DNA of 64,000 nt from Spirochaetia bacterium (GCA_029880285.1 JAOUOS010000012.1:484-64483); one strand, 5' to 3'. Counted from the stretch's first letter, positions 9,233 through 63,682 are shown. Made by a program: numbers and translations. The notes: generated from the letters alone by a model not told the origin.

Positions 9233-9241
9233 ATTTATTCT

Positions 9242-11209
9242 TTATTTAATAATCTCACCTATCTTAAAAAAAGATACTGTTTTTTGAAGATGCTCAGACT
9301 GCCCACTTAATTCTTCAGCTGTCGCGGCCAACTCTTCTGCTGATGAGGCGTTTTGCTGTGTAGCTTTATCAAGCTGACCCATGGCACTATTTATTTGACT
9401 AACGCCGCTATTTTGCTGTTCAGAAGCCGCTGTTATTTCTTGAATTAAATCTGCTGTTTTTTGTATATTTGGAACCAGTAACTCTAAAAGTTTTCCCGCT
9501 TTGTCTGCGACTTCTACGCTATCACCTGCCAATGTTCCAATTTCTTGAGCAGCTATCTGACTTCTTTCGGCGAGTTTTCTTACTTCTGATGCTACTACCG
9601 CGAATCCTTTTCCATGCTCGCCTGCTCTGGCCGCCTCAATGGCTGCATTCAATGCCAGTAAATTAGTCTGGTAGGCAATTTCTTCTATAATTGTAATTTT
9701 TTCAGCAATCTGCCTCATAGCCTGAACAGTTTCATCTACCGCCTGACCACCCTCAAAAGCATCTTTAGAGGCTTTTTGTGCAATTCCATCGGTTAATTTA
9801 GCGTTTTCTGCATTTTGTGAAATACTGGCCGACATCTCTTCAAGAGATGATGTTGTCTCTTCAACACTCGCGGCCTGCTCATTTGCCCCCTGACTCATAC
9901 TCTGCGCCGTTGAACTAAGTTCAGTTGAAGCAGAAGATACTGACTCAGCGTTATTTAATACATCTGCAATTATCTTCTTTAACTTTTCTTGCATATCACT
10001 TAAAGACTGAAGAACCTCCCCTATTTCATCTTTGCGGTTTATAATAATATTGTTTTTAAGATTACCATCTGCCATAGACTTAAAATAATTTTGAGCATTT
10101 GAAAGCGCATTAGTTATGTTTTTATTGATTATTACTGAAAAAAATAAAGCGGCCAAAATTCCCGCTATTACCGCTAGTATCGTATACCAAACTGTTTTTT
10201 CTAAATTATTAATTCGTTTATTAGTTAAATCTTCAAAAGCGGGAATAGTTTTATCGTATAAAGAAATTAAAAAGGACAAAGCCTCTGTTGCCGCATTAAA
10301 ATATACAGTCGCGCTTTTAGCTTCTTTACTAAAATCTGCATTAATAACATCATTTTCAACCATTTTAATAAAATTATTTACAGATTCTTTTGCTTTATCA
10401 TGGTCTAATTTAATTTTTTTTTCTGTCACTGACGATATCTCATATATTTTTGAAAAATTTTCATTAATAGTATTATTTAGATCTTTTATTAACACCAAAT
10501 AAGAAATAACTGTATCTCTCTGCATAACATTAATCGTGTTTTTTGCCAAAATACCTGAACCTACGGCTCTGGCTCTACCCATATATTCCATAATCCATGG
10601 TATTTTTACAGTAAATAAATCCATTAAGTAAAAGGTTGCCACTTCGGGATCCAGCGTTAAATTAGAATTATCTCCTGCTTTACCCATTAATGAATATACT
10701 TCTTCTATTAGAACACTAAATTCTTTAATCGCTATAGCCGGATCATCACCGTCTTTTACTTCGATTTTTTCAAGAATATTTTTTCTTAGCGCGTCCCATT
10801 TTACATACACATCTAGCTCTTTGCCTAATTTTTTATTGATTTTATCAACACCTTCAACAGCCTCTTGTATAAGCTTTTTCTTATCACGCATTTTTTCTTT
10901 GAAACTATTATCTCCGTTTAAATAAGCGCTGGTCATACCCCTATACTGAGGTATATGCTCAAAAAGTTTTCTAATAGGTTTAATATATTCAACACCAAGA
11001 AGCTCTTTTTTCGCGAAATCAATACCAAGCTCTTTTTTTGAAGAGATCATTTCATAAGTAACCACAGCCAGAGGTATTAAAAGAATAATTGTATTTAATA
11101 AAGATTTTTGTGAAATTTTCAATCTATTCAATAAACTTATTTTTTCATTTACTGATTCTTTGATCAATTCATTCATTAGAATTCTCCTGCATTTATTATT
11201 TTCGGACAT
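9242..11209 (-). CDS. Methyl-accepting chemotaxis protein with large helical periplasmic sensor, HAMP and MCP signalling domain
   Basis: Two TM segments flank a ~300-aa sensor region. A HAMP domain follows, then the conserved hairpin [42 protein letters not shown]. Confidence 0.9.
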
Positions 11210-11337
11210 TATAATTGAAACAAACTAGTTTTTATACGTTTTTTTTTGATTTTTTTCTATGTTATACAATTTCATTTATTAGTTTTTTCATGGCCCTAGT
11301 TATACTCAACTTTATAAACAAAGTTTAGTAGAAAATC

Positions 11338-11365
11338 TTGACCTCTTGACCTATGTTAAGATAAT
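11338..11365 (+). promoter_or_regulatory. Sigma70-like promoter for the hemerythrin gene
   Basis: TTGACC (11338-11343), a 16-nt spacer, then GATAAT (11360-11365). An AGGGGG RBS follows and the ATG is at 11393. Confidence 0.4.
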
Positions 11366-11392
11366 GGATTGAGAAAATACAGGGGGTTCAGC

Positions 11393-11800
11393 ATGTCGTT
11401 AATAAAATGGAGCAATGATTTAAGCATAAATGTACAAGAAATAGACGATCAGCATCAAAAGCTAGTAGATATGATTAATAGTCTGCATAAGGCAATGAAT
11501 GACGGTCAGTCTCAGCAGATAATCGGCAAGATTATTAAAAATATGGTTGAATACACAGAATCACATTTTCAGCTTGAAGAGAACTATTTTGAACAGTTTA
11601 ACTATGATCTTAGAGATGAACATAAAAAAGAACATGACCAATTTATTGAAAAAGCTCAAAAACTGCAAAACGATTATTTTGAGGGCAGTATAAGAATTGG
11701 TATTGAAACTATGCAATTTTTAAAAGAATGGCTTGTTGATCATATTATGGTCTCAGATAAAAAATTTGTTCAATGTTTTCATGAAAATGATATTGTATAG
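11393..11800 (+). CDS. Hemerythrin-like metal-binding protein (bacteriohemerythrin)
   Basis: WSNDLSINVQEIDDQHQKLVDMIN, HFQLEE, HKKEHDQF and WLVDHIMVSDKKF. I chose the ATG at 11393 behind the AGGGGG RBS rather than the TTG at 11369. Confidence 0.85.
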   Translation: MSLIKWSNDLSINVQEIDDQHQKLVDMINSLHKAMNDGQSQQIIGKIIKNMVEYTESHFQLEENYFEQFNYDLRDEHKKEHDQFIEKAQKLQNDYFEGSIRIGIETMQFLKEWLVDHIMVSDKKFVQCFHENDIV

Positions 11801-12025
11801 AAATAAAAAGGGTATTTGAACAACCCGTCTGCCTCATACGAAAATTTGATAATATGCTGTGTTTGATGTAACCCAGTTGTATTAATAAGTGGTCATTTTT
11901 TTTTTGACCAATTTAATATTCTTTATTACAATTTAGACAATAAATATATATTATAATGTATAATACCAAAATAGCAAAATGTCAAATAAGATAAAATCTG
12001 CTCATTTTAAGGTAACAACGACAAT

Positions 12026-13651
12026 ATGAATTATCCTGTTTGGGTTACTGAGGTTGGCGGTAATTTTTATATCGCTCTTATTTCTATATTTCATGTATAT
12101 ATTGCTCATTTTGCCATTGGCGGCGGAATTTTTCTCGTATTAACCGAGCATTACGCTTACCGCAAAAATGACACACGGCTTTTAGATTATTTAAAATTAC
12201 ACAGTAAATTTTTTGCGCTTGTAACGCTTGTTGCCGGCGCTTTAAGCGGGGTCGGTATCTGGTTTGTCGTAAGTCTGGTAAGCCCTACGGGTATAAGCGC
12301 TTTAATTCGGGTTTATGTATGGGCATGGGCCATTGAATGGGTTCTTTTTTTCGTTGAAATTATCGCTTCTATCGCGTATTATTCTTCATGGAACACTATA
12401 AGCCGCAAGCGTCATTTAACAATCGGATGGATTTATGTTGTAACCGGAATTTTATCTTTAGCTGTCATAAACGGTATTATTACTTTTATGCTGACTCCCG
12501 GCGAGTGGATTGAAACGAAAAATATTACCGATGGTTTTTTTAACCCCACGTACAAGCCATCTTTATTTCTTAGATTTTTTATCTGCATCTCACTTGCCGG
12601 TATTTACGCCCTTTTTACGACCGTAACTTTAAAAGATAAAGAGACTCGGGCAAAGCTTCTAAGATATGCCTCAATTTGGGCAATTGTTGGCGCTTTAATG
12701 ACCATACCCGGCTTTAGATGGTATTTTAGTCTGCTTCCCGAGGGCAGCGAAGAAATGTTATTATTAGGAGGTATGCCCATCGCGCAAAACGCTTATGATA
12801 TACTTACTTTCGCGGGTGTTCTACTCATAATATTTTTGCTTGTGCCTCTTTTTATACCTAGAAAATTTCACTGGAGTCTGACAATATTAATTGCGGCTTT
12901 TGCTCTTTCTGTATTTGGGGCAGCAGAATGGATTCGTGAAACAATCCGTAGACCCTATGTTATCTATGATTATTTATACGGTAATAATTTAAGGATAGAT
13001 GAATATGAAAACGTACAAAGAAAAGGCGGCATATTAAAAAACGCGCTCTGGGTAAAAGAAAAAGATGTATTGAATATAAACGCGGGCAAAGACATCTTTA
13101 GAATTGCTTGTCGAAGCTGTCATACGCTTAACGGATATAATGCCCTTGCGCCGCCTTTTGGTAAAATTGAAGAAGAATATATTTATGCTATAATTGGCAA
13201 ACTAAAACACCTTCGCGGTAAAATGCCTCCTCTGGCGGCTACTGAAGAAGAAAAACTGATCTTAGCAAAATATCTTTATGAATCGGGCAAAAAGATTAGC
13301 CAAACAGAAAAAACAGGGCATGAAGTCTTTGAGAAAAGATGTACTTTTTGCCATACTAAAGATAAATATAACGGTTTATATGATTCTTTTGAAGGCGAAG
13401 AGCTTGAAAGCATACGCGATTCAATACCAATATTAGACGAAATGGCCGAAGAAATGGTACCCTGGTTTGGCAATGACGATGAAGCCGATTTACTCGCAAA
13501 ATATATTCATTCATGGTACTTAGAAAAAAAACCTTCTTCAAAGAAAATGGACAAAGAGAAGAAAATTGAAGAAGATGAAAATAATGATGATGACACCACA
13601 GAAGAAGAGGAGAGCGAAGAAACAGATGATTCGGAGGATGAAGAAGAATGA
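12026..13651 (+). CDS. Polytopic membrane protein (CydA-like N-terminal domain) fused to dihaem cytochrome c domain with an acidic tail
   Basis: About 8 TM helices. TM1 reads ISIFHVYIAHFAIGGG and TM3 reads WAIEWVLFFVEIIASIAYYSSW. There are two CxxCH motifs (CRSCH, CTFCH) and a C-terminal D/E-rich tail. Confidence 0.6.
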   Translation: MNYPVWVTEVGGNFYIALISIFHVYIAHFAIGGGIFLVLTEHYAYRKNDTRLLDYLKLHSKFFALVTLVAGALSGVGIWFVVSLVSPTGISALIRVYVWAWAIEWVLFFVEIIASIAYYSSWNTISRKRHLTIGWIYVVTGILSLAVINGIITFMLTPGEWIETKNITDGFFNPTYKPSLFLRFFICISLAGIYALFTTVTLKDKETRAKLLRYASIWAIVGALMTIPGFRWYFSLLPEGSEEMLLLGGMPIAQNAYDILTFAGVLLIIFLLVPLFIPRKFHWSLTILIAAFALSVFGAAEWIRETIRRPYVIYDYLYGNNLRIDEYENVQRKGGILKNALWVKEKDVLNINAGKDIFRIACRSCHTLNGYNALAPPFGKIEEEYIYAIIGKLKHLRGKMPPLAATEEEKLILAKYLYESGKKISQTEKTGHEVFEKRCTFCHTKDKYNGLYDSFEGEELESIRDSIPILDEMAEEMVPWFGNDDEADLLAKYIHSWYLEKKPSSKKMDKEKKIEEDENNDDDTTEEEESEETDDSEDEEE

Positions 13652-16134: not shown

Positions 16135-17706
16135 TTAAACCATTTCGGCTGCTTTTTTCAACATCTCTTCTTTTACCTGAAAGGTCTCGGTTTGTCTTCT
16201 TATGTTTTCATCAATTGTAAAAAATGATACAGTTAATTGAAGATGTTCTGCCTGACCGCTTAACTCTTCTGAGGTCGCGGCCAACTCTTCTGCTGCCGAG
16301 GCGCTCTGCTGTGTTACTTTATCAAGCTGACCCATCGCTGCATTTATTTGACTTACCCCGCTGTTTTGCTGTTCTGAGGCGGCTGTTATTTCTTGAATTA
16401 AATCGGCTGTTTTTTGTATACTAGGAACAATAACTTCAAGAAGTTTACCCGCTTTATCGGCTATTTCTACACTGTCGGCCGCGAGTGTTCCTATTTCTTG
16501 AGCTGCTGTTTGACTTCGTTCTGCCAGCTTTCGCACCTCAGACGCGACCACCGCAAAGCCCTTGCCATGCTCTCCCGCGCGTGCGGCCTCTATAGCCGCG
16601 TTTAAAGCAAGAAGATTTGTCTGATAGGCAATTTCTTCTATAATAGTAATCTTTTCAGCAATTTGTCTCATCGCGTTTACCGTTTCATCTACCGCTTTAC
16701 CACCCTCACCCGCGTCTTTAGAAGCTTTTTGGGCAATGCCGTCAGTTATTTTCGCGTTTTCTGTATTCTGTGAAATACTGGCCGACATCTCTTCAAGAGA
16801 CGAAGTAGTTTCTTCAACACTGGCTGCCTGCTCATTTGATCCCTGGCTCATACTCTGAGCGGTAGAACTTAACTCTGTGGCGGCGGCAGAAACTGACTCG
16901 GCATTATTTAATACATCTGAGATAATTTTTGAAAGATTGCTTTGCATATCGCTTAAAGCCTTAAGAAGCTGTCCTATTTCATCATTACTATGAACTATAA
17001 TTTTGTTTTTAAGGTTCCCGTCAGATATCAAATTAAAATAATCAATAGCTCTTTTTAAAGGTTTATTTATGCTACTTATAATATAAGTTAAAATAAGACC
17101 AAGCACTACAAGAGCAATAACGAACATTGCCCAGGTTAATGTTCTCGCCTCTGAAACAGCAGCGTCGCCTTTTTCTTGTATGGATTCATTATATTTTTCA
17201 AGTAAATCGCCTAAATTTTCCATTTTTACTTCTAATTTCTCAAACAATTCTTCAAATTTTTGCAATTTTTCTTCAATAAGCTCTTTATCTTCAGCATTCT
17301 TTAGAAAAACAATATCATTAGCGCCATCTATATACGCTTTTAACTGGGGTTTAACTTCACTAAGAGCGTTTCTTATATTAGAAGGAAGTTCAGCTTTTTC
17401 AAGTTCATTAATAGATTTATTAAAAGTCTCATCGTTTTCTTTTAGTGATTTTCTAACTTCGGCCAGCATATCCATATCGCCATGCTCCATTTCAAGAAGT
17501 CCGGCGAAAACATTACCGTAAATTGCCTCATGCATCATATCTGCATTCATTAGTGCTCGTATTAATCCTGAGTTTACAATGATTTTGTCCATCGCGTCAT
17601 CAATCTTGTTAAGACCTATATTGCCAACAGTTGTTGATATAAAAAAAATGATTCCGGTAAGCGCGCCCGTAAGCCACAACTTGGTTTTTATTTTTAAATT
17701 TTTCAT
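16135..17706 (-). CDS. Methyl-accepting chemotaxis protein, paralogue of 9242-11209 with a different sensor domain
   Basis: A four-helix-like periplasmic region is followed by HAMP. The signalling domain is nearly identical in protein sequence to the first MCP. Confidence 0.9.
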
Positions 17707-19578: not shown

Positions 19579-20751
19579 ATGGCATTTATTTTAGCAATTA
19601 TTTTAACAACATCAGCGAATTTAGGTGAAATTCATTTAACCGACAATACTGTAATAAAAGCAGAAATTGTACGGGTAGGAAGAAGCCACATTGAATACAG
19701 GTTCTCTGAAGATTCTGAAATATTAGAAGTTTATCGTGATAGCGTAAAAAAAATAGTTTATCCTTCAGGTGAAATTCTTGAATTTAGTAGCAATGAAAAC
19801 AAATTAACAAATGACAACTCCTTTTCTTTTAATGATTTATCTTTAAAAATAGGAATAAAAAGCGAATATCTTTTAGGTGATACAACCTACCAGTTAGGCG
19901 GATACTACACCACTAGCACCGGTAAAAGTGGCAATGCCCGCTTTCCCTTAAGCGAACTTAGTTTTCCTGTAAACACCTATAATCTTAGCGGAATGATCAG
20001 CTTTATATTTCTTAAAAACTTCACTCTTTCAACTATAATGACTTTTAATTTAAACAAAGATCCAGGCAAACTAAAAGATTATGATTGGGGAATTTATTAC
20101 GGCGATCCTGAAATTCCCAACGCAACTCAAAATTCTCTTGATATATACTCTGAAAGCAAATTAAAAATAAAATACCAATTTATTGAAACTCTTTTAAGGT
20201 ACAACTCTAAGCTTTTTTCAAATTTCTTTTTTATTTCTCAGCTTGGTTATACAAGACAGAATTTTTCTTTTGAAGGAAAAGACGCGGTTCAAAGCTACCC
20301 TTCTTCTGAAGAATATTTCGCGATAAAAAAAGCAAACCGATTTTTAGAAGGTACGGTAATTACCTATGATGCAAACTACAATATTTTATCATTTTCAGGC
20401 GGTTTAGGATATTCATTTTTTGATAATTTCAACACGAGTCTGCAATTCGGATTTATGCCTTATGTTTTTATAAAAGATCGAGACGACCACGTTATAAGGT
20501 ATAAACTTTTTGAAAGTAAAACTTATGGGCAGGGCTTTTTAGCAATATTTGAAACAAATTATGAAATCTTAAGTGTGGTTACAATTTCTCTTGCTGCCGC
20601 GTATAAAAAAATAAGTTCCACGGGAAGACAAACACAAACATTCTACAAAACAACTGAAGATGCAAACGCGGGCGATACTGCTGAAGTTGACAGCAAGGTA
20701 TTTTCTGTGCAAAATACAATTTCAATAATGGTTGAATACACCTTATTTTAA
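19579..20751 (+). CDS. Putative outer-membrane beta-barrel protein
   Basis: Alternating hydrophobic beta-strand pattern, aromatic C-terminus (VEYTLF), and no motif I recognise. Confidence 0.45.
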   Translation: MAFILAIILTTSANLGEIHLTDNTVIKAEIVRVGRSHIEYRFSEDSEILEVYRDSVKKIVYPSGEILEFSSNENKLTNDNSFSFNDLSLKIGIKSEYLLGDTTYQLGGYYTTSTGKSGNARFPLSELSFPVNTYNLSGMISFIFLKNFTLSTIMTFNLNKDPGKLKDYDWGIYYGDPEIPNATQNSLDIYSESKLKIKYQFIETLLRYNSKLFSNFFFISQLGYTRQNFSFEGKDAVQSYPSSEEYFAIKKANRFLEGTVITYDANYNILSFSGGLGYSFFDNFNTSLQFGFMPYVFIKDRDDHVIRYKLFESKTYGQGFLAIFETNYEILSVVTISLAAAYKKISSTGRQTQTFYKTTEDANAGDTAEVDSKVFSVQNTISIMVEYTLF

Positions 20752-23297
20752 TTTTTCAACAAACGGGCCTTCATTTGAATATATGAACTTCCCTTTGCAT
20801 CTTTTTTAAATTCTCCCATAGATGATTTTTTAAATTTAGAATTCTTGGTTTTAACCGCAAAAGATTTAACTATTGAAAATAGTTTATTATTTAACACGTA
20901 AGAAATATGAATATTTATATAGCCTGCCTTTTGAGAAGGCAATATAAACATCCCTTCTTGTTCATGCAATGTATTTGCTTTTATACTATTTACTTCTTTA
21001 TAAAATCTGTCTTTAATAACAACATCATCAATACCGGTTACGTTTATTTTAATGTTCGACAAATCTATTAAAGATTTAATTTTTATCACGAATTTATTTT
21101 TCCTGCCGGGCAAAGCGTATTCAGGCACATCCGCTGATATAAAAAAAGGTAAACCCGGTTTTTGAGGGTTTGTATAAATATTATATCCTGAAACCTCTGT
21201 GTTTAATCCATGAACGGTTATTATATAGGTTTCATCAGCCGCCGCGGGAAAAGTAATAAAAGGGCAAGACGCGGTTAATCCGCTGGCTTCTTCATCAAAG
21301 GCAATCATTTCTCCTTTATGATAAACATACATATCCAGAAAATCTCCTCCCCCGCAGGTGTATCCGGTTAAGTCTGTTACCGAAATATTCGCGTCTATTC
21401 CCTTGCCTGTATAACGATACCAGCGCGACATCCCAAATTTGTTTTCATAATAAGTATAATTTGAAAATACCGTTTTATCATGCTCGTTTGCATTCCATGC
21501 AATATTTAAATTTTTATATAAACGCCAAAACTCAGCGCCTTTTAATAAACCGTCATTTTTATAGTAATTACGATTTACCGCGTAATGTACTCCTATATCA
21601 TTATCTACATCAAATATATCGGGTGTATCTGAATTACCGTTGCAAGTTCCCGCGCATAAAGCGTCAAAGGGAGTATCTAAATCTGAAACCCATAGAGTTT
21701 CTAAATTTTCAGAGGTCTTACCGTATATTGAATTATAATACGCTGCAAAAACCGGCAGACTTTCAAAAGCATAAGTAGAGCGTATGAAAAAACGCATGAC
21801 ATTATAAATTTTAGTGAAAGACCCGCTATAAAGTGCTGCATCAGTGTTTTCAAACAAGGACCATAAAAAATACAAAGCGCTTCTTTCACTGTAAACACCT
21901 TTATCATTGCCTAAAGGCGCCCTGTTTGACTCTAAACTAAAACCAGAATTTTGGCCGCTTCCGTTTGTGTCTACATAAACCGGATCACGAAACGCCATTG
22001 CTGCCACGGCGGTAGCGTATCCCTCTGAAAAAGCGATTCTTAAATCGAGAACATCTTCTAAGCTGTGCGGGCCGCCGTATGAATCTGTACGAAATAGATT
22101 ATCTTCAAAATAATGAGCCATTTCATGCGCTATAACATGATCATCATATTCATCAGTGTCAGAATTTTCTTTTCCCAATATATATATATATGAATTACCC
22201 TGAGTATCTTTTGTGTAATGCGTAGTACCAATTTGACCCAAAGCAAACAAACCCGAAGCGGCAATATTCTCAGGACTCCAGTTTATTGAAAGTTCGGGAA
22301 AAATAATAGATGACTCTCCCTGACACATAAGTTCTATTAACGAAACCGATGTATCAAGAATAGCAAAAGGAGCCGCTGTTCTGTTTACATAGCCCCCAGA
22401 ATATTCTAAAGGGGCATGAAAATTTATATCTGAAGCTGTTGAATTATATATCGTCGAATCACTTAAAATATACAGGGCTCCTTCTGAAGTATTATCAAAC
22501 ACACTCATGTTCCATACTGAATCTATACAGTAATTTGGCTCATAAGCGTCTGCCTGACTGCCGCCTGAAAAAATATTAGCCAATACCTGAATTGTAACAG
22601 ATTTTTCTGAGGGAACACTTAGTGTAAAATTCCCATTATCATCTGCTGATACTTCGCTAATTATTATACCATCTCCGCTGGCAGGCACAGGATATTCAAC
22701 TGCCTGAACACGTACCCTTCTGGCTGGTTTCATAATAATATTTGAATAATCAATTTTTATACCACTTTCAGTAATATCGTCTAAAACAGCCGCGTAATCA
22801 TAAGTTATCCTTCCCGAAAGATAGTATAAAACATCTGCCGTAATTATAATTTCATCATAAGCGCTCTGAGTTTCTATAAAATTTCCATTTTCATCTTTTC
22901 CATTATCTGAAACTGTAAGCCGTAAAGTATAAATTCCAACTACATCGGGTATAAAAACCGCGAGTCTAGTGTCTGCGTATAATAAACAGTTCGAAAGCCC
23001 GCTTATGCATCCTGAGTTTACTGGTTCATTAATTATTTCCCATTTGTATTCAGTAATTCCTCCGAATGTTATGTTTTGATCTTTTACATTGGGTTTAAGT
23101 TGGTAAGAGCTGCCAATTGGAATATTTAAATCATCACCAGCATAAACATACGGTTTAGGATTTATGGGATCAGTCGGTTTATTGGGTATAATTTCTATTT
23201 TAGAATCAGGCAATATGTCTAATCCATCACCCCCGCAATGATAGAAATTACTGATTAATATAGACAAAAAATAAAAATATTGAATTAAATTTTTCAA
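20748..23297 (-). CDS. Large secreted/lipoprotein zinc metalloprotease-like protein (HExxH)
   Basis: N-terminal signal with Cys (NFYHCGG), a PKD-like segment (ITEYKWEIINEP) and HEMAHY in DDHVIAHEMAHYFEDN. Confidence 0.55.
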   Translation of the reverse strand: MKNLIQYFYFLSILISNFYHCGGDGLDILPDSKIEIIPNKPTDPINPKPYVYAGDDLNIPIGSSYQLKPNVKDQNITFGGITEYKWEIINEPVNSGCISGLSNCLLYADTRLAVFIPDVVGIYTLRLTVSDNGKDENGNFIETQSAYDEIIITADVLYYLSGRITYDYAAVLDDITESGIKIDYSNIIMKPARRVRVQAVEYPVPASGDGIIISEVSADDNGNFTLSVPSEKSVTIQVLANIFSGGSQADAYEPNYCIDSVWNMSVFDNTSEGALYILSDSTIYNSTASDINFHAPLEYSGGYVNRTAAPFAILDTSVSLIELMCQGESSIIFPELSINWSPENIAASGLFALGQIGTTHYTKDTQGNSYIYILGKENSDTDEYDDHVIAHEMAHYFEDNLFRTDSYGGPHSLEDVLDLRIAFSEGYATAVAAMAFRDPVYVDTNGSGQNSGFSLESNRAPLGNDKGVYSERSALYFLWSLFENTDAALYSGSFTKIYNVMRFFIRSTYAFESLPVFAAYYNSIYGKTSENLETLWVSDLDTPFDALCAGTCNGNSDTPDIFDVDNDIGVHYAVNRNYYKNDGLLKGAEFWRLYKNLNIAWNANEHDKTVFSNYTYYENKFGMSRWYRYTGKGIDANISVTDLTGYTCGGGDFLDMYVYHKGEMIAFDEEASGLTASCPFITFPAAADETYIITVHGLNTEVSGYNIYTNPQKPGLPFFISADVPEYALPGRKNKFVIKIKSLIDLSNIKINVTGIDDVVIKDRFYKEVNSIKANTLHEQEGMFILPSQKAGYINIHISYVLNNKLFSIVKSFAVKTKNSKFKKSSMGEFKKDAKGSSYIQMKARLLKN

Positions 23298-24927: not shown

Positions 24928-25524
24928 ATGAAACCATTTGAAAAAATTACATCAAACATATGCCCTTTAGACATATCAAATATAGATACCGACCAGATAA
25001 TTCCCAAACAATTTTTAAAAAGAGTTGAAAGAACCGGGTTCGGAAAGTATTTATTTTACGACTGGCGGTACAATAAAGATAAAACAGAAAATACTGATTT
25101 TAACTTAAATAAACCATATTTTAAGAACGCGAAAATACTTTTAGCAAGAGAAAACTTTGGATGCGGTTCTTCGCGCGAACATGCTCCCTGGGCCTTGAAA
25201 GACTATGGATTTGAAGTCATTATCGCGTCTTCATATGCTGATATATTTTATAACAATTGTTTTCAAAATGGAATTTTACCCATTATCTTACAAAAAGATG
25301 AAATTAATAAACTATTTAAACTTATTGAGAATTCAAGTGAAAATGAATATGAAGTTGATTTAGAAAATCAAAGCATTCTAAGTTTAAAAGATAATACCAA
25401 ATTTATATTTAATTTAGATAAAAACAGAAAAGAAAAACTACTAAAGGGTATTGATGATATTGGTTACACGCTACAGTTTGAAAAGTCAATTGTAGAATAT
25501 GAAAACTCAATAGAGTTTTTCTAA
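24928..25524 (+). CDS. leuD: 3-isopropylmalate dehydratase small subunit
   Basis: NIDTDQIIPKQFL and ENFGCGSSREHAPWAL. It starts 3 nt after leuC. Confidence 0.95.
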   Translation: MKPFEKITSNICPLDISNIDTDQIIPKQFLKRVERTGFGKYLFYDWRYNKDKTENTDFNLNKPYFKNAKILLARENFGCGSSREHAPWALKDYGFEVIIASSYADIFYNNCFQNGILPIILQKDEINKLFKLIENSSENEYEVDLENQSILSLKDNTKFIFNLDKNRKEKLLKGIDDIGYTLQFEKSIVEYENSIEFF

Positions 25525-25528
25525 CGCA

Positions 25529-26560
25529 CTAATCAACAAACTCCTCTTTTTCTTTGTGAAGCATTAGCATACCTTCTCTCTCAAGTTTTTCAACAGATTC
25601 CATAACAACTCTGCGGTTTTTTTCAATTTCTGCCGTAGAAATGGCTCCTATAATTTTCATCTCTTCTAAAATATCAGAAGACCTATTTACAGATATATTA
25701 CTGAATATATGCCTGCGCAATTCTTCTCCGGCTCCTTTTAACGCTTTCGCCCATACTTGATTTTCAGCTGTTTTTTCAAAAATTCTGCGTATCTCTTTAC
25801 CGTTTAATTTAATTAGATCTTCAAACATAAAAAGACTTTCTTTTATTCTTCTTGCCATTTCTGGATCATTTTCATCTAATGCCCGCAAAATATTTTCTTC
25901 ACTTTTAACGTCCAGAAAACTTAAAATCGCAGATAATTTTTCTTCACCGCTTATTTGTTCAAATTCTTCTTTTTCTATTTTTTCAAGTTTTGAAGAAAGT
26001 GTTTTATATATTGCATTTAAAGTATCTGGATGAACTTTTTGCATGAAAGCTACTTTTCTGGCTACCTGCGCCCGAAACGAGGCTTCAAAATTTTTTAACA
26101 CTTTGGCGGCAAACTTTGATGTTAAATTTGTTAGAACGACAGCCGCTGTCTGAGCCATTTCTTGAGAAAGCACTTGGGCTATAACTTCTTCTGAATAAGA
26201 CTCAAATTCATGAAAATGTTTTGCAGTTTGTCTTTTATTTAATTTTTCAATATACTTTTCTGCTTTTTCATGACCAAGAGCTTTTTGAAGCAGTAAAATA
26301 GCTTCATCTTTACCTCCTGTTAGAGTTCCCTCATTTTTTTTAATCTCCTGCTGAAATTCTTTAAGAAGAGAATTTTTCTCATCTTTTTCTAATTTCTTAA
26401 TACTTACTATTTCACGAATTAATTTTTCTATTGAATCAGAGTCAAGATATTCCATTATTTTTGCGGCGTTATCTTCGCCTAATGCTACTAATATTTTCGC
26501 GGCTTTTTTTATTTTTTCTCTGCTATTTATATCAACAGGCTTTTTTGAATTCATTATCAA
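25529..26560 (-). CDS. fliG: FliG-family flagellar motor switch protein (paralogue-like), last gene of the partner-switching operon
   Basis: 343 aa. The N-terminus reads KILVALGEDNAAKIMEYL. The C-terminal torque-helix region reads ISVNRSSDILEEMKIIGAISTAEIEKNRRVVMESV. Confidence 0.75.
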   Translation of the reverse strand: MIMNSKKPVDINSREKIKKAAKILVALGEDNAAKIMEYLDSDSIEKLIREIVSIKKLEKDEKNSLLKEFQQEIKKNEGTLTGGKDEAILLLQKALGHEKAEKYIEKLNKRQTAKHFHEFESYSEEVIAQVLSQEMAQTAAVVLTNLTSKFAAKVLKNFEASFRAQVARKVAFMQKVHPDTLNAIYKTLSSKLEKIEKEEFEQISGEEKLSAILSFLDVKSEENILRALDENDPEMARRIKESLFMFEDLIKLNGKEIRRIFEKTAENQVWAKALKGAGEELRRHIFSNISVNRSSDILEEMKIIGAISTAEIEKNRRVVMESVEKLEREGMLMLHKEKEEFVD

Positions 26561-26568
26561 GAGGTAAA

Positions 26569-26901
26569 TTATGAAGCTTGAACAGCTTCTTCTTCAGTGT
26601 CATATACTTCAAACATATCAATTAATTCAACTACTTCAAAAACTTTTCTTACGGCGCTATTTAAAGCGCATAAGCGAAGCGATCTATCTTTCTCTTTTAA
26701 AATACGCATAGCCGCAACTAATATTCTTAATCCGCTGGAAGACATATATTCTACTTCACGCATATTAATAATTAAATCGGCCTTAGTATTTTCATCAATT
26801 AATTTATTTAACTCTTTTTCAATTTCTGCGCTTAAATGAACATCTAATCGCCCCTTCAAATATACTATAATACTATTTCCCGCTTGTTTTGTCTTTATCA
26901 T
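26569..26901 (-). CDS. STAS-domain anti-sigma-factor antagonist (RsbV/SpoIIAA-like)
   Basis: 110 aa. The phosphorylatable serine context is EYMSSSGLRILV. Confidence 0.85.
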   Translation of the reverse strand: MIKTKQAGNSIIVYLKGRLDVHLSAEIEKELNKLIDENTKADLIINMREVEYMSSSGLRILVAAMRILKEKDRSLRLCALNSAVRKVFEVVELIDMFEVYDTEEEAVQAS

Positions 26902-26917
26902 AAAATCTCCTTTTTTT

Positions 26918-27343
26918 TTAAATTGTTTTTTTTATTAGCTTAACTATATTTTTTTCTTCTTCATATTTATACTTTATACGATCCATCATATTCTTCATTA
27001 AGAAAACCCCAAAACCTCCTTCTCTTTTTCCTTTTAAGTTTTGTTTTATATCAGGCGGCGGAGAGTTTAGTATATTAAATTCTTTGCCATTATCTGTTAT
27101 TATAATTTTAACAATCTTTCCTCTTTTCTTTAATTCTATACTAAAATTTTTTTTGCTGTTATTCTTGTCGTCTTTATACGCATACATCACTATATTAGCA
27201 CAAGCTTCATCACATGCCAGCACAATATCTTTGATATCATCTTCATGAAGATCCCATAATAGCAACTGTCCCTCTACAAATTTTTTAACTGTGGGAACCG
27301 ATTCTTTTTCTGCCTTAAATATTTTTTTTGTCTTTAATACCAT
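26918..27343 (-). CDS. RsbW/SpoIIAB-like serine kinase (HATPase_c)
   Basis: N-box DEACANIVMYAY, G1 ITDNGKEF and G2 REGGFGVFLM. Confidence 0.8.
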   Translation of the reverse strand: MVLKTKKIFKAEKESVPTVKKFVEGQLLLWDLHEDDIKDIVLACDEACANIVMYAYKDDKNNSKKNFSIELKKRGKIVKIIITDNGKEFNILNSPPPDIKQNLKGKREGGFGVFLMKNMMDRIKYKYEEEKNIVKLIKKTI

Positions 27344-27356
27344 TTCTTTTAAAACA

Positions 27357-29795
27357 CTATTTTATTTTTAGTAACAATATAGTAAAATCATCAAACTGCG
27401 GCTCGGTTTCAGCAAAATCTTTTACCTCAGCAAATATTTTTTTAATAAGTTCATCAGCAGATAAAGATTCTTCTTTTTTTATTAATTCTTTAAATCTATC
27501 GATGCCATATTCTTCTTTTTGGGGATTTATAGCTTCAACCACGCCGTCTGTATATAAAATAAGAATATCGCCGCTTTCTAAAGTAGCTTCGCCTTGAGTA
27601 AATTCACCATGTAAATCTGATGAAATAACTCCCAAGGGGCTACCCTTTGCGTATAAATATTCAATTTCTTTTGTTTTTTTCCGATAAACCATCTGCTCGT
27701 TATGACCGGCTGAAGCGAACCTTAATAATCCTGTATCTGAATTATAAATGCTGTAGAAAAGAGTTACAAACATACCCGCTTGACTATCTTCATAAATTAA
27801 ATCGTTAGCTTCTGTTAAAAGTTCCGATGGCTCTTTTCTTTCTTTCGCAACTGTTCTTATAATAGAACTTGTTACCGCCATAAAAAGGGCCGCAGGCAGA
27901 CTTTTGCCTGATACATCGGCCACAGAAAATGAAAACTCATTTTTAGATAAAGCAAAGAAGTCATAGAAATCTCCTCCCATCATTTTCGCGGGAAGAGAGA
28001 AAACACCCATATCAAACTTATCATTAATAATTTTTTTGCCGGGTAAAATTGATTTTTGAATTGAAGAAGTAATTTCAAGCTCTTTTTCATAGGCTTTCTT
28101 TTGCATCATCTCATCAAGTAATCGAAAGTTTTGAATTCCCTTTGTTATTTGGCTGGCAATAGTAGAAACCAATCTAAAATCATCTTCTTGAAATTTTTTG
28201 TTCTCTTTTTTTTCAGCAATATTTAACACGCCATAAACCGTATCGCCCTGCCCTAAAGGTAATATAATACAAGAATTAATTTTATCTTCTGTATTATAAT
28301 ACTTTTCATACTCGCTATTTTTTAAATCGTTAGAAAAAATTATCTCATTTTTATGAAACGCCAAGCCGCTTAAAGAATCATCAATAGGGATTTTCTTATT
28401 TTCGTTTATATCGTCAGAAGGACCATGATGAGAAACGATTTGAAGCGTATTTTCTTCTTTATTGTGAAGCATTATAGAAACTTTTTCTGCTTCAACTTCA
28501 TCAGATATTATTTTTACAACCGAATCATATAAATCCACTTCATTTAATGTAGAAATCATAGATTTACTTATTTCATGCAAGCTGGATAATTCATGCACCT
28601 TTTTTTCGAGTTCTTTATTAATTGTTGTTAATGAATCAATTAATTCGCGGTTATGAATCGCGAGCGCGGCCTGTTCAGAAAAAGAATTAAATAATTCTAA
28701 ATCTTTTTCATCAAATTCATCACGGCCCAAAGAATTAATTACTTCAATTACGCCTATAATTTTTCTCTGTACCATCAAAGGTACGGCAATAAGGTTTCGT
28801 GTAACAAAATTACTTTTCTGATCGGCTTCTTTAAAAACCCGGTCATCTTCCTGGGCATTATTTACAATTAATGGTTCTTCGTCTTTTGCCACTATACCGG
28901 CGATGCCCACGCCAATGGGAATTCGAATTTCTTTTAATGCTTTTTCTTTTTCTCCTGAAATTATATTAAAATACAGCTCATTTGTTTTTTTATCTATTAA
29001 CATTAAACTAGAAGCTTCTGCCTTTAAAACCATCTTGGCTGACTGCATTATAGATTCCAATAAACTCTGTAAGTCTAAAGTAGAGTTAATCATCTTTGAA
29101 ACTTTAATTATTTCAGAAAGAAGTATGTTATTTTCTAGATTGTTTTTATATAAATACAGATTTTCAACAATTGTAACTAAATTAGAAGCAAAGTGAATCA
29201 TTAATCCGCTGCCATTTTGATTTGAAATAGAGCTATAAATTAAACGCGCGAATGTTTTAGCGAAAGCTGTGGCAACACTTACATCTTCATAATCAAATTT
29301 ATTTAACGGGATTTTCTCTTCAAAAATAATCGCACCAAGAACAATACGCTGGTCTACTTCTAACGGAGAAAATATGTAAGAAGTTTCGGCCCTTCCTATA
29401 TCATTACCTTCTTCATCATATACATTCTGATTTTTTTCAATAAAAAAAGAATCTTTTATTCTTATACATTTTTTTGCCAGATTTTTTTCAATTAATTTTA
29501 CTTTTGCTTCTTTTTTTCTTATAATCTTTAGTTTTTGATCTTCTCCTATAAGCAATATCTTACAATACTTTGCCCTTAAAAGCTGTGCCGCCGATTTAAG
29601 AATAAATTGAGAAGCTCTTAAAAATTCCGATTGAATATCAACAAAAAACCCATTTTCACCATGTTTCACTATTGAATTCTCAGTGTTTTGATATTTTTCA
29701 GCGGACGATATTATACTTACATTTCTTATGGCATTTTGCATATTTTGTGCTATAAAATTAACCATGCTTAACCCTGCAATAAAAAAAATCATCAA
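27357..29795 (-). CDS. Multi-GAF PP2C/SpoIIE-family serine phosphatase (RsbU-like)
   Basis: Repeated GAF-like segments are followed by a C-terminal PP2C domain (GGDFYDF, VADVSGKSLPAALFM, LYTDGVVEA, QFDDFTILLLK). Confidence 0.85.
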   Translation of the reverse strand: MMIFFIAGLSMVNFIAQNMQNAIRNVSIISSAEKYQNTENSIVKHGENGFFVDIQSEFLRASQFILKSAAQLLRAKYCKILLIGEDQKLKIIRKKEAKVKLIEKNLAKKCIRIKDSFFIEKNQNVYDEEGNDIGRAETSYIFSPLEVDQRIVLGAIIFEEKIPLNKFDYEDVSVATAFAKTFARLIYSSISNQNGSGLMIHFASNLVTIVENLYLYKNNLENNILLSEIIKVSKMINSTLDLQSLLESIMQSAKMVLKAEASSLMLIDKKTNELYFNIISGEKEKALKEIRIPIGVGIAGIVAKDEEPLIVNNAQEDDRVFKEADQKSNFVTRNLIAVPLMVQRKIIGVIEVINSLGRDEFDEKDLELFNSFSEQAALAIHNRELIDSLTTINKELEKKVHELSSLHEISKSMISTLNEVDLYDSVVKIISDEVEAEKVSIMLHNKEENTLQIVSHHGPSDDINENKKIPIDDSLSGLAFHKNEIIFSNDLKNSEYEKYYNTEDKINSCIILPLGQGDTVYGVLNIAEKKENKKFQEDDFRLVSTIASQITKGIQNFRLLDEMMQKKAYEKELEITSSIQKSILPGKKIINDKFDMGVFSLPAKMMGGDFYDFFALSKNEFSFSVADVSGKSLPAALFMAVTSSIIRTVAKERKEPSELLTEANDLIYEDSQAGMFVTLFYSIYNSDTGLLRFASAGHNEQMVYRKKTKEIEYLYAKGSPLGVISSDLHGEFTQGEATLESGDILILYTDGVVEAINPQKEEYGIDRFKELIKKEESLSADELIKKIFAEVKDFAETEPQFDDFTILLLKIK

Positions 29796-29825: not shown

Positions 29826-29854
29826 TGACACTTTATATTTTATTTATTAATATT
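29826..29854 (+). promoter_or_regulatory. Sigma70-like promoter for sucB-lpd
   Basis: TTGACA (29826-29831), a 17-nt spacer, then TAATAT (29849-29854). The ATG is at 29869, which implies a very short leader with no clear RBS. Confidence 0.4.
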
Positions 29855-29868
29855 TAAATTTAAAGAAC

Positions 29869-31083: not shown

Positions 31084-32502
31084 ATGAGTTTAGAATTCGA
31101 CTTAGCAGTAATAGGAGCGGGACCAGGCGGATATACCGCCGCAATAAGAGCTTCTCAACTGGGTCTAAAAACAGCAATTATAGATAAGCGTGAAACTCTT
31201 GGGGGAACCTGTTTAAATGTGGGATGTATACCCACTAAAGCCCTTTTAGATTCATCTGAAAAATTTTATAAAGTCAATGAGAAATTATCAGTACACGGAA
31301 TTGAAGTTCCATCTGTTAAACTTGATTTTAAAAAATTAATGGATAGAAAAAATAAAATAGTTTCAGAAGTATGTCAAGGCGTTGATTTTTTAATGAAAAA
31401 AAATAAAATCACCCGCTATCACGCCGCCGCTTCATTGAAAAATTCTCAAGAAGTTGAACTTGAAATTTTAAGTGGCGAAAATAAAAATAAAAAAATAACC
31501 TTAAACGCTAAAAATATACTTCTAGCGACAGGATCGGTGCCTGTTGATATACCTTCTTTATCTGTTGATGGTAAACACATTATTACCTCTGATCATGCCG
31601 TTAACTTATCAAAAATACCAAAGAATATGATTATCGTAGGCGCCGGAGTAATAGGTCTTGAACTTGGTTCGGTATACAGCCGCTTGGGCACTAAAATAAC
31701 CGTAATAGAACTTATGCCAAGACTTTTGCCCTTTGTTGATAAACAAATCGCGGCTTTTATGCAGCGTTCATTAGAATCTCAAGGTTTTAAATTTTTCTTT
31801 GAAGAGAAAGTCACTTCGTCAGAAATAAAGCAAAATGCAGTGGTATTAAAGACAACAGATAATAGCGGTAAAGTAAAAGAATTTGAAACTGAAGTTGTTC
31901 TTACTGCCATAGGCCGAAAACCCTATACCGAAAACTTAGGTTTAGAAAATGCGGGTATTAAACTTACTCCCGCTGGAAAAATTTCAATTGATAAAAAAAC
32001 ATACCAGACAAACATTAAGGGAATATACGCCGTAGGCGATGCAGTTGAAGGCCCTATGCTGGCGCATAAAGCAGAAGAAGAAGGCATTGCCGCTGCAGAA
32101 ATTATCGCCCAAAAACCAGGTCATGTGAATTATGAAGCAATACCATCCGTTGTTTATACATCCCCTGAACTAGCGTGGGTAGGTTTGTCAGAAGAAAACT
32201 GCAAAGAAAATAACATAGAAGTAAACACAGGAACATTTTTCTTTAGAGCAAATGCGCGCGCCAAAGCCATGAATGAAGCAGACGGATTAGTAAAGGTAAT
32301 TGCTCATAAAAAAACAGACAGACTTTTGGGTGTTTTTATCGCCGGACCTCACGCCTCTGAATTAATAGCCGAGGCAGTTGTGGCTTTTGAATTCGCGGCT
32401 TCTTCTGAAGATATTGCACGTTCGGTTCACGCACACCCGACTCTTTCTGAAGCTTTGCGCGAAGCCGCCATGGCCGTCTCTAAATGGTCCATTCATAGTT
32501 AG
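31084..32502 (+). CDS. lpdA: Dihydrolipoyl dehydrogenase E3
   Basis: GAGPGGY, the redox disulfide [13 protein letters not shown], and HAHPTLSE. Confidence 0.95.
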
Positions 32503-32503
32503 G

Positions 32504-34543
32504 TTATTTTCCGCCGCCGAATTTATTCTTTATAAATTCACTGGTAGCTTTTTGCTGTTTTATTGAACCTTCCATACGTCCAAATTTTTCACGAAGTTTT
32601 TGTTCATATTTTTTAACATGTTCTTCTGTTCGTTCAATATCTTTTTGAAGTCTTGATATTTTATCTTGATTATTTTGTATTTGAGTAGAAATAACACCTT
32701 TCGTAAGGCGGGTATAAGGCTTTAAAAAGTTTTCTGTCATATAAGCCATGCCATTATCTACTCTTAAATCTCCATCAGAATCAACACCAAAAAAATCTTT
32801 TACCGCGCCCGGGTATTTTAAAAGGGTCTCTTCTAACTTCGCTTCATCAACCATAAGATAGCCTTCTGAAATGTCCTGCCATCTGCTTCCTATTTCACCT
32901 GTTGAAACGCCAATTACCGGTAAAATTTTAATTTGCGGTTCTTTTGTGGCAGGATATGGATTTAAAATTCTGCTTCTTAATCCGTTAACCAAACCTCTTA
33001 CCGTGGCATTTGTTATTAATGCGCCGGTTTCTTTTTTAGCTTCTTTAAATTTGCCTTCTTCTTTAATTTCAGGTGATTTTGTTACTTCTTTTGTAAACTG
33101 AATTAAGGTATTATAACTATTAACAAATTCCATTACCTGTTCTTTTGCTTTTGCCATATTTGGTTTTATTTCGGCCTTGATTGTTTCATTTCCCGCTTTT
33201 AACAAATTTAGTGTTGCTCCATTTACTATATCTTGTATATCTTCATTTTTTTCTCTTTCTATTTCAACTCCGTCAAAGTTAATAACTGCGTTTTGGGCAG
33301 GTTGAATTAAATTCGGGAAGTTTTCATTACCATCGGCGGGCTTTTTTTTATTATCCTCTTTTTTATCTTTTTCACTGTCTTTCTTTTCGCTTCCTTTTAC
33401 TTCATAAATCCATTCGGGATTTATAAAATCTACCTGCGCGTTTTCAACATAAAAGTCAATACTTTTAACATCTTCTTTTAATGGAACGTCTACAAGCTCG
33501 CCTTTTTCTTTTAATGATATTAATTCTGTTTCAAAAGATTTATAATTTACTTTAACCCCATAATCAAAAGTTTGCACTTCAAAGTGAGGCTTTTCTCTTT
33601 CTCTTGCAATATTGTAACTATCAAGAAGTATACCTTTAATATTTAATGATTCCACGGGCCCTTCTATAATACTAAAGGGTCCTAAATCTTCGTCTTCACT
33701 GGTCTTTGCGTGGTATTTTACGCGTATTTTTAATTTTTTAAGTTTACCATCAGCAATAACTTCAGGACTTTTATCAAAACGTCTCGCTGCGTTTTGATTC
33801 AAAGAAAGCTGTGTATAATCACTATTTATTTCTGAAGGACCTTCTTTAACTAATGAAATATTTTCCGGTTTAAAATAAATTTGCCTTCTTTCTTCACGCG
33901 TTTTATCTTCTGATTTTTCAGGCTGCGCGTTTGTCGGTAAAATTTCAATGGGACGATAAATTCCTAATGAATCTAAAATCTTATCTTGATCTTTTACCTG
34001 CCAAACACCTTTTTTGCCTGTCTCTTTACCCTCAAGAATCAAAACAAAATTTTCAGAATCTATATTTACTGTTTTTGCCGTTAGAATTTCATTGAAGTTT
34101 GAATTAAAAAATTCTTTTAAAGCGTGAATAGAACCGCCTGAAAATTTTTTTTCTGTGCCATTTATATTTATTAAAGCAGGTGAGAGCTTCTCTTTTGATT
34201 TTATAGGATTGCTTTTTACTTTTAAAACAGTCGCGAGATTATTTATTTTTATGTCATGCGTACCATCTTCAGCGTTTTTATTGGCTACACCTTCAATAAA
34301 TCCCGGAGGATTTGACTCTATGACTTTTTTTTCAAAAGCCGCGTCAAAGTTATATAGTACCCTTAAACTTTCTTCTAATTTTTGGGTTTGTTCGCGAAGA
34401 GCTTTTAATGATTCTATTTCAAATTTTAATTCATCCTGCTCATTTTTCATTCGATGGATAGGACGTTCTTCAAACTGTTTTAGTTTTTCTATCATGGGTT
34501 TAGTATCAACCCCTGACAAACCTTCCATCGTTAACGTAGGCAT
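32504..34543 (-). CDS. fliD: Flagellar filament cap protein FliD (hook-associated protein 2)
   Basis: N-terminus GLSGVDTKPMIEKLKQFEERPI, plus C-terminal coiled-coil FliD-type segments. Confidence 0.8.
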   Translation of the reverse strand: MPTLTMEGLSGVDTKPMIEKLKQFEERPIHRMKNEQDELKFEIESLKALREQTQKLEESLRVLYNFDAAFEKKVIESNPPGFIEGVANKNAEDGTHDIKINNLATVLKVKSNPIKSKEKLSPALININGTEKKFSGGSIHALKEFFNSNFNEILTAKTVNIDSENFVLILEGKETGKKGVWQVKDQDKILDSLGIYRPIEILPTNAQPEKSEDKTREERRQIYFKPENISLVKEGPSEINSDYTQLSLNQNAARRFDKSPEVIADGKLKKLKIRVKYHAKTSEDEDLGPFSIIEGPVESLNIKGILLDSYNIAREREKPHFEVQTFDYGVKVNYKSFETELISLKEKGELVDVPLKEDVKSIDFYVENAQVDFINPEWIYEVKGSEKKDSEKDKKEDNKKKPADGNENFPNLIQPAQNAVINFDGVEIEREKNEDIQDIVNGATLNLLKAGNETIKAEIKPNMAKAKEQVMEFVNSYNTLIQFTKEVTKSPEIKEEGKFKEAKKETGALITNATVRGLVNGLRSRILNPYPATKEPQIKILPVIGVSTGEIGSRWQDISEGYLMVDEAKLEETLLKYPGAVKDFFGVDSDGDLRVDNGMAYMTENFLKPYTRLTKGVISTQIQNNQDKISRLQKDIERTEEHVKKYEQKLREKFGRMEGSIKQQKATSEFIKNKFGGGK

Positions 34544-63180: not shown

Positions 63181-63681
63181 TTTATAAAGATTTCCTCTTA
63201 TTTCATATTTTTTTTTCATTTCTACAGCATTCATTGTTAAAACAGCATTATTGACCGGTTTTTGATTGTGGTAATCAATAAATTCTTGAAGATAACTTTT
63301 GTATTCTTTATCAAAATCATTTTTATTTTTACCGTGATAGAGTTTACCAAACTTTCTAAAACTACCGTCAAACTCCTCTGAAATATGGTACAGTTCATGG
63401 AATATAACATCTGCTTTTTGATTAAAATTATATTCAAAAAACCGGGGCCAGTAAAAATAAATTAAATATAGCTTACCTGCAGGAAAATGAGATATACTGT
63501 ATCCGGCTGGAATTTCTTTTCGTCCTATAATTTTTGCCAATATACCCGACTTATGAGTTTTTCTATTTCTCGAAATTAATATTTGAAGTTTAGTAACATC
63601 TATGTGAGAGAATATTTTATATTCTTGAACGATGTGCACTATAATTTCAAACAGCTTATCTGAAAGATTTATTTTTGTCAT
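63154..63681 (-). CDS. Hypothetical HExxH protein (possible SprT/WLM-like metallopeptidase)
   Basis: HELYH in VIFHELYHISEEFDG. I prefer the internal ATG at 63681 (MTKINLSDK...), which lies 1 nt after the dnaB stop. The track start at 63765 would overlap dnaB by 83 nt. Confidence 0.45.
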   Translation of the reverse strand: MTKINLSDKLFEIIVHIVQEYKIFSHIDVTKLQILISRNRKTHKSGILAKIIGRKEIPAGYSISHFPAGKLYLIYFYWPRFFEYNFNQKADVIFHELYHISEEFDGSFRKFGKLYHGKNKNDFDKEYKSYLQEFIDYHNQKPVNNAVLTMNAVEMKKKYEIRGNLYKLPRLMKKK

Positions 63682-63682
63682 T

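Follow-up and report, generated by a model that had tools for sequence, protein, structure and literature searches.

We analyzed a 64,000-nucleotide (nt) stretch of DNA, hereafter called the window, which was deposited under the name Spirochaetia bacterium (GCA_029880285.1, JAOUOS010000012.1:484-64483), has a guanine-plus-cytosine (GC) content of 33% and comes from an uncultured relative of Leptospira and Turneriella. The locus of interest is a cluster of four close-packed open reading frames (ORFs) on the minus strand, at positions 25529-29795, which encode a PP2C phosphatase, an RsbW-like kinase, a STAS protein and a FliG protein. An earlier note on this DNA, made from the sequence alone, had placed four minus-strand ORFs here, and we find them at the same positions. 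The first two spacers, of 13 and 16 nt, are also as the note gave them; the third, which it put at 8 nt, measures 14 nt from the likely ATG start of the FliG gene, and 8 nt only if the TTG start of the FliG ORF is used. The note further described a multi-GAF SpoIIE/PP2C phosphatase of 812 amino acids (aa), a kinase with intact N, G1 and G2 boxes, a STAS protein with a phosphorylatable serine in the expected context and a full-length FliG-family protein, and all four assignments are upheld by the domain, motif and fold analyses reported below. It had also stated that no sigma factor is encoded here, which is borne out by a Pfam scan of the 64-kilobase (kb) window, where no ORF of at least 120 aa contains a sigma-factor domain.

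The first gene of the cluster (27357..29795, minus strand) codes for a sensor phosphatase in which three GAF domains precede a PP2C domain of the SpoIIE type at the C-terminus, as established with Pfam and hhalign. Its longest ORF begins with TTG and comprises 812 aa; the probable start, preferred by gene callers, is the ATG at 29765, which gives a protein of 802 aa (P0377). Pfam places the SpoIIE/PP2C domain at residues 620-811 (E-value 1.5e-50) and recognizes two of the GAF domains. The N-terminal region of about 180 residues is a third, divergent GAF domain, which was matched to each of the other GAF domains with 96.7-97.5% probability by hhalign, using a profile built from 49 aligned orthologues. 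The catalytic and metal-binding motifs of the PP2C domain (GGDFYD, DVSGK, TDG and DD) are invariant or nearly so among these 49 proteins. Full-length orthologues of the phosphatase number about 64, and many of them are labelled Turneriella sp.

The second gene (26918..27343, minus strand) encodes a GHKL serine kinase of 141 aa that resembles the RsbW and SpoIIAB anti-sigma factors (HATPase_c_2, E-value 3.5e-24). RsbW and SpoIIAB are its nearest NCBIfam models, at scores well under the equivalog cut-offs; because it reaches 63 bits with the RsbW model, for which the cut-off is 145, we regard it as a member of the family and not as an RsbW equivalog. Its N box (DEAxxNI), G1 box (DxGxxF) and G2 box (GGFG) are present and conserved in the relatives, and the kinase as a whole is the least conserved member of the module, with 33-54% identity across related loci. 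The third gene (26569..26901, minus strand) is preceded by a strong AGGAG ribosome-binding site, as read from the sequence, and encodes a single-domain STAS protein of 110 aa of the anti-sigma-antagonist type (STAS, E-value 3.1e-21). Its score of 83.9 bits with TIGR00377 is over the cut-off of 53.45. The phosphorylatable serine lies within EYMSSSGLRILVA, and the corresponding motif, EYMSSSGLR[IV]LVA, is conserved in 12 of 12 aligned STAS orthologues and kept even in operons without an adjacent kinase gene. Where it is present, the STAS protein is the most conserved member of the module, demonstrating 58-70% identity across lineages whose FliG proteins share 37-65%. Given the conservation of the PP2C motifs, of the kinase boxes and of the STAS serine, both enzymes appear to be active.

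The last gene of the cluster (25529..26554, minus strand) encodes a divergent full-length FliG of 341 aa, here termed A-type, in which FliG_N, FliG_M and FliG_C all score over the Pfam cut-offs. The longest ORF spans 25529-26560, and the likely start is the ATG at 26554 (P0001). An AlphaFold model with a mean predicted local distance difference test (pLDDT) score of 80 has the full FliG fold and matches FliG of the Salmonella C ring with an E-value of 1.7e-13 over 321 columns. Its domains reach template-modeling (TM) scores of 0.8-0.9 with isolated FliG_C and FliG_M structures, among them 0.87-0.90 with MotAB-bound FliG_C and FliM-bound FliG_M. Several features set this protein apart from the standard copy, in agreement with the earlier note: it scores 206 bits with the TIGR00207 equivalog model, under the cut-off of 226.7, it has lost the His-Pro of the EHPQR motif, and its gene does not lie between fliF and fliH, but follows the STAS gene and converges on leuD.

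The closest relative of the window FliG, from a Spirochaetia bacterium in a sediment metagenome, is named 'hypothetical protein' by NCBI. Close relatives form a small set with 42-65% identity, after which identity drops to about 32% with ordinary FliG proteins. The same gap appeared in a HMMER search of 1.84 billion representative proteins, where 16 clusters (at 50% identity) scored 347-517 bits and the next hits scored at most 291 bits. A scan of one genome per prokaryotic species yielded 32 loci. Apart from a few generically or doubtfully labelled records, the carriers are metagenome genomes labelled Leptospirales, Leptospiraceae, Turneriella, Leptospira, Spirochaetia or Spirochaetota. We built a neighbour-joining tree from 398 FliG sequences, in which bootstrap analysis resolved three clades. 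Clade A, which contains the window protein and is rare and confined to metagenome genomes of the Leptospirales, has 33 tips (bootstrap 96%); clade B has 36 tips (96%) and includes a FliG from cultured saprophytic species of Leptospira; the 59 tips of clade C (100%) are labelled Spirochaetota and keep the sequence EHPQT. Branching among the clades is weakly supported (53% for A+B and 71% for A+B+C). The one-genome-per-species scan contained no genome with both an A-type and a B-type FliG, as would be expected if the two types represent a single paralogue lineage that is carried by separate branches of the order.

The A-type protein retains the N-terminal FliF-binding signature, and in the window protein positions 297-298 are Glu-Glu, aligned with Asp288-Asp289 of E. 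coli, the MotA-facing pair of the torque helix; within clade A, Glu298 is nearly invariant and most members have Asp or Glu at position 297. The arginine of the torque helix sits one residue away from its usual place (S-x-N-R), a trait common to clades A, B and C. Features specific to clade A are the loss of the EHPQR histidine, an invariant Trp268 and the loss of a conserved N-terminal glycine. The EHPQR motif forms the FliM-binding surface of the middle domain, and the window FliG has E-M-A-Q at this site, without His-Pro. The histidine is missing from the clade A sequences that were inspected, with leucine as the commonest replacement (39%), and the proline is kept in about half of them; the glutamate, the glutamine and the distal Arg/Lys are retained. 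Position 268 is Leu or Ile in other FliG proteins. The loss of His-Pro together with the invariant Trp268 points to changed partners, and judging from these residues the A-type FliG looks like a rotor protein that is still able to face the stator and has altered switch-side contacts.

The earlier note had held that absence of the linkage from relatives would count against its proposal. Instead, the phosphatase module was found directly upstream of fliG, on the same strand, in 19 of 19 clade A loci with readable upstream sequence, whereas none of 28 loci from the neighbouring clades has this arrangement (Fisher p 3.5e-13). Locus L005 was counted in clade A, as it has Trp268 and falls in this clade in the tree. 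The phosphatase-FliG pair is kept while FliG identity spans 65% to 37% and the GC content of the locus ranges from 26% to 50%, and it persists in L001, L005, L006, L009, L019 and L046, where the flanking genes differ. Junctions within the module are often overlapping or shorter than 10 nt in the related loci. By this comparison the linkage is not a matter of chance, and the comparative evidence for a functional phosphatase-FliG link is strong. A clade C fliG also has a response-regulator-PP2C gene upstream of it (L044:980-2161), at a distance of about 2.8 kb; two genes stand between them, and this case was not counted as linked.

The composition of the module varies within clade A. The complete set of phosphatase, kinase, STAS and FliG genes is present in the window and in L001, L003, L011, L013, L016 and L019; L005 and L050, which are cut at the contig end, are grouped with them. 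Among the loci with incomplete sets, the kinase is missing from L004, L007, L014 and L015, which have the order fliD, phosphatase, STAS, FliG; here the fliD stop and the phosphatase start overlap (L004, L007) or lie within 4 nt of each other (L014, L015). The STAS gene is missing from L006, L009, L012 and L049, which retain phosphatase, kinase and FliG, and L051 has only phosphatase and FliG. Finally, L046 combines a phosphatase-kinase fusion with a STAS protein and a FliG without its first ~68 residues. The constant partners within clade A are thus the GAF-PP2C phosphatase and FliG. The proposal of the earlier note that the output of the kinase or the STAS protein acts on FliG holds up with respect to the strict linkage of module and FliG, but its kinase-or-STAS wording is too specific, because some loci lack the kinase, the STAS protein or both and the invariant partner of FliG is the phosphatase.

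Two of these loci have further features of their own. In L046 (7001-11063), the phosphatase-kinase fusion is a single protein of 936 aa (P0417), and the linked FliG, of 288 aa, lacks the FliF-binding helices, which make up the missing N-terminal residues. Three further phosphatase-kinase fusions occur among the phosphatase homologues (P0435-P0437). In L006 (5133-10673), the phosphatase-kinase-FliG cluster lies 2.4 kb upstream of a flgB-flgC-fliE-fliF-fliH-fliI operon on the same strand, in which fliF and fliH are 3 nt apart with no fliG between them.

We infer that the four genes of the cluster form one operon and are co-transcribed. Within the cluster, a scan of the minus strand found no terminator-like site, and hexamers resembling promoters occur there at the chance rate (29 found, 22 +/- 5 expected). 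The candidate operon promoter is a sigma-70-like hexamer pair (29837..29864, minus strand) within the 73 nt that separate sucB from the phosphatase gene, with 9 of 12 consensus positions matched; it is weak evidence, as shuffled versions of this AT-rich region yield no fewer sites of the kind. Upstream, the cluster is divergent from sucB-lpd, and beyond these genes lies fliD, for the flagellar filament cap (32504..34543, minus strand; FliD_N and FliD_C found), on the strand of the cluster. The opposite-strand sucB-lpd pair thus stands between fliD and the cluster, and the order fliD, sucB-lpd, phosphatase recurs in L003 and L011. Downstream, the cluster is convergent with leuCD, and the gap between fliG and leuD is only 4 nt (25524-25529). 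The lpd and fliD genes are convergent as well, 1 nt apart (32502-32504). With the two convergent pairs, leuD/fliG and lpd/fliD, placed nearly back to back, there is no room for separate terminators. An Rfam scan of the window matched no RNA family.

The interpretation that we prefer, with a rough probability of 0.45, is that the cluster is a partner switch encoded with its own output, a specialised A-type FliG, by analogy with the SiaABCD system. It starts from what the loci display, namely the gene order, its strict conservation, the intact motifs of the switch proteins and a FliG that combines its complete fold and stator-facing charges with a changed FliM-binding motif, and from the flagellar context of the module, which is syntenic or overlapping with fliD and in L006 has the flgB-fliI operon nearby. 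In this scheme, the three GAF domains of the phosphatase would sense a small molecule and set the phosphatase activity. The RsbW-like kinase would phosphorylate the STAS serine, and the PP2C domain would remove that phosphate. Depending on the phosphorylation state, either the STAS protein or the kinase released from it would bind the A-type FliG, and this binding would decide whether the A-type FliG is held back or enters, or acts in, the C ring of the periplasmic motor. As the outcome, torque or switching would be changed after translation. All of the protein-protein contacts, and the effect on the motor, are proposed here by analogy. The specific version in which the rotor subunit is the direct client, so that a dedicated FliG variant would be held or released and the C ring remodelled upon a metabolite sensed by the GAF domains, appears unlikely to us.

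Several observations weigh against a partner switch that acts on FliG. RsbW-type proteins classically bind sigma factors, and a sigma factor target could be encoded outside the window. The kinase is missing from four of the clade A loci, the STAS protein from four others and both from L051, so that no kinase-FliG or STAS-FliG contact can be universal unless the partners are encoded elsewhere. In a Spirochaetes-labelled genome outside the Leptospirales-labelled set (L045:7001-10032), genes for a GAF-GAF-PP2C phosphatase, a kinase and a STAS protein are followed by a cytidine/dCMP deaminase gene and not by fliG; the module can therefore have outputs other than FliG. Ten long FliG homologues, one of which is a FliF-FliG fusion, contain no STAS, kinase or PP2C domain. 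The sequencing runs that contain the region are DNA sediment metagenomes only, with no RNA run among them.

The L045 module also bears on the age of the system. Its phosphatase is 34% identical to that of the window and lacks the N-terminal GAF domain, and its STAS protein is 49% identical. Since this distant module has no fliG, the switch with its three parts predates the linkage to FliG and extends to more lineages. A deaminase gene was also seen before a B-type fliG in L021; the link is not recurrent, and we treated it as a coincidence.

The closest parallel among described systems is SiaABCD of Pseudomonas aeruginosa, whose operon has the same order of phosphatase, kinase, switch protein and output, and whose output is likewise not a sigma factor (PMC8457831, PMC7647112). 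There, it is in its unphosphorylated form that the switch protein binds and activates the last gene product (PMC8457831, PMC7647112). The two systems differ in that the Sia output is a diguanylate cyclase and not a rotor protein, SiaC, which is phosphorylated on threonine, falls outside the classical STAS proteins, and SiaA has a different sensor part. In addition, binding between switch protein and output is established for SiaABCD, whereas in the system described here it is proposed. The Bacillus switches RsbU/RsbV/RsbW-SigB and SpoIIE/SpoIIAA/SpoIIAB-SigF share the same three protein families and their motifs, including the STAS serine; the cluster in the window differs from them in having no sigma factor gene in its vicinity of 64 kb, another gene order, kinase scores below the equivalog level and a triple-GAF sensor.

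Other systems resemble the cluster in being connected to motility. HsbR-HsbA of Pseudomonas is a partner switch that feeds into flagellar motility (PMC6482189, PMC5085249), and HsbR joins phosphatase and kinase in one protein, like the fusions P0417 and P0435-P0437. However, HsbA acts on the anti-sigma-28 factor FlgM and a cyclase, through transcription and cyclic di-GMP (c-di-GMP), and has no linked FliG gene. This switch (HsbA-FlgM/HsbD; PMC6482189, PMC5085249) and HenR with its glycosyltransferase (PMC13555669) are, like SiaABCD, partner switches with an output other than a sigma factor (see also PMC8256260). Among spirochaetes, FliG1 of Borrelia burgdorferi (PMC7225975) and the FliG proteins of L. 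interrogans (PMC11800159, PMC11442865) offer cases of a FliG encoded outside the main flagellar operon, but no linkage to a partner switch has been reported for these extra FliG copies, and the clade B loci that we examined lack it. Motor brakes and clutches offer a parallel at the level of the target. EpsE is a clutch that acts on FliG. YcgR, MotI and EpsE bind the single resident FliG, whereas the cluster couples a FliG variant of its own to a phosphorylation switch; the likeness of the c-di-GMP brakes YcgR and MotI lies in post-translational control at the rotor-stator interface (PMC11800159). Our literature searches found no description of a FliG gene in a partner-switch operon, nor of a STAS, RsbW or PP2C protein acting on FliG. 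The component families, partner switches with non-sigma outputs and extra spirochaete FliG proteins are already known, and the linkage of FliG to the switch appears to be the new part.

The main alternative, possible but doubtful, is that the module works as a conventional partner switch whose target is a sigma factor with its gene elsewhere in the genome, such as sigma-28 (FliA). FliG would then simply be expressed along with the module as part of a late flagellar operon, and the control of motility would be transcriptional. Sigma-28 belongs to the same sigma group as the classical targets of RsbW and SpoIIAB, and these two anti-sigma factors are the nearest models of the kinase. Leptospira genomes hold many orphan STAS and RsbW genes, and the variants without a kinase or STAS gene imply that partners come from elsewhere. 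The existence of a related module without FliG (L045) and the position of fliD, a late flagellar gene in many bacteria that is syntenic with or joined to the operon, are likewise consistent with this explanation. Transcriptional control of this kind does exist in the order: the lb136-lb139 locus of L. interrogans contains the phosphatase-containing sensor lb139 and a STAS protein, and mutation of lb139 lowers motility and chemotaxis transcripts (PMC13066512). However, no sigma factor is encoded in the window (ORFs of at least 120 aa) or in the related loci that were inspected. Were FliG a mere passenger, one would not expect it to have remained linked in 19 of 19 loci with changing flanks, nor to form a clade of its own with clade-specific residue changes, and the phosphatase-FliG pair survives the loss of both kinase and STAS protein in L051.

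It is rather improbable that FliG itself is the phospho-substrate, or direct client, of the GAF-PP2C phosphatase and, if present, of the kinase, with the STAS protein as an accessory. Such an arrangement would agree with phosphatase and FliG being the only invariant pair, and with the loci L006, L009, L012 and L049, where FliG directly follows the kinase in the usual STAS slot. PPM phosphatases and RsbW-type kinases are, however, highly specific for the STAS fold (PMC11418112), and the STAS protein is the most conserved member of the module where it occurs. We also found no conserved serine or threonine unique to clade A; Ser288 is universal in FliG.

We give little credence to the explanation that the A-type FliG is not a working rotor subunit but an adaptor through which the module is anchored to the motor or its MS (membrane and supramembrane) ring, so that information would flow from the motor to the switch. 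Most members of the clade keep the whole N-terminal domain and the acidic stator-facing pair, and the predicted fold is that of a full FliG, although the FliG of L046, which lacks the FliF-binding helices and is still linked to the fusion and the STAS protein, and the degenerate FliM-binding motif of clade A could be read in this way. That the adjacency is inherited synteny in one lineage, without functional meaning, is very improbable, for while all carriers belong to one order, several share a fliD ... leuDC frame and common descent explains part of the conservation, the pair outlasts the differing flanks of L001, L005, L006, L009, L019 and L046, FliG is never separated from the module despite its varying composition, and FliG identity goes down to 37%.

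The A-type FliG presumably is a paralogue, and it is very probable that the organism has at least one other FliG. Searches of the 64-kb window by tblastn with FliG proteins of clades A, B and C found no other fliG in it. Leptospira carries several FliG copies, one of which belongs to clade B; L. interrogans has three FliG genes, all of which have been detected as protein (PMC11800159). In biofilm and in a host-chamber model, one of its FliG paralogues responds in the opposite direction to the other motility genes (PMC11442865, PMC13066512); in biofilm, a FliG copy goes up while other motility genes go down (PMC11442865). The arrangement in L006, where fliF and fliH are adjacent without fliG, hints at the A-type protein being the sole FliG. 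We set this idea aside, since the clade B and C fliG genes of Leptospirales-like genomes likewise are orphans that lie apart from fliF and fliH. If the organism had no second FliG, the finding would be more striking, not less.

Elsewhere in the window, positions 8129-13651 hold a cluster resembling an oxygen- or redox-sensing system, with a protoglobin-GGDEF diguanylate cyclase, a methyl-accepting chemotaxis protein, a hemerythrin and a protein that joins cytochrome bd subunit I-like and cbb3-type cytochrome c domains. A second chemotaxis receptor is encoded at 16135-17706. The ORF at 20748-23297 (849 aa) has no Pfam match; it contains an HExxH motif like that of zinc metalloproteases (VIAHEMAHYFED) and a hydrophobic N-terminus, and may encode a secreted or lipoprotein protease of an undescribed family. 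At 53322-55973, there is a gene for an 883-aa protein with two phospholipase-D-like domains and a lamin-tail domain. A lone IstB/DnaC-like ATPase without an adjoining IstA transposase (1060-1920) and a protein with a putative phage metallopeptidase domain (63154-63765) may be remnants of mobile elements.

Partner switches have been described chiefly as regulators of sigma factors, with a few that control enzymes instead. The extra spirochaete FliG proteins have poorly understood roles, and a wider question is how the motors at the two ends of the cell come to differ. FliG1 of Borrelia is reportedly located at only one cell pole. If the rotor subunit were indeed the direct client of the switch, and the variant were loaded at one pole only, this could help to make the two polar motors behave differently. 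The many Turneriella-labelled relatives that carry the phosphatase suggest that a cultivable model may exist. The conserved operon is a testable candidate for signal-dependent post-translational control of the rotor, and it provides a first functional handle on one lineage of spirochaete FliG paralogues.

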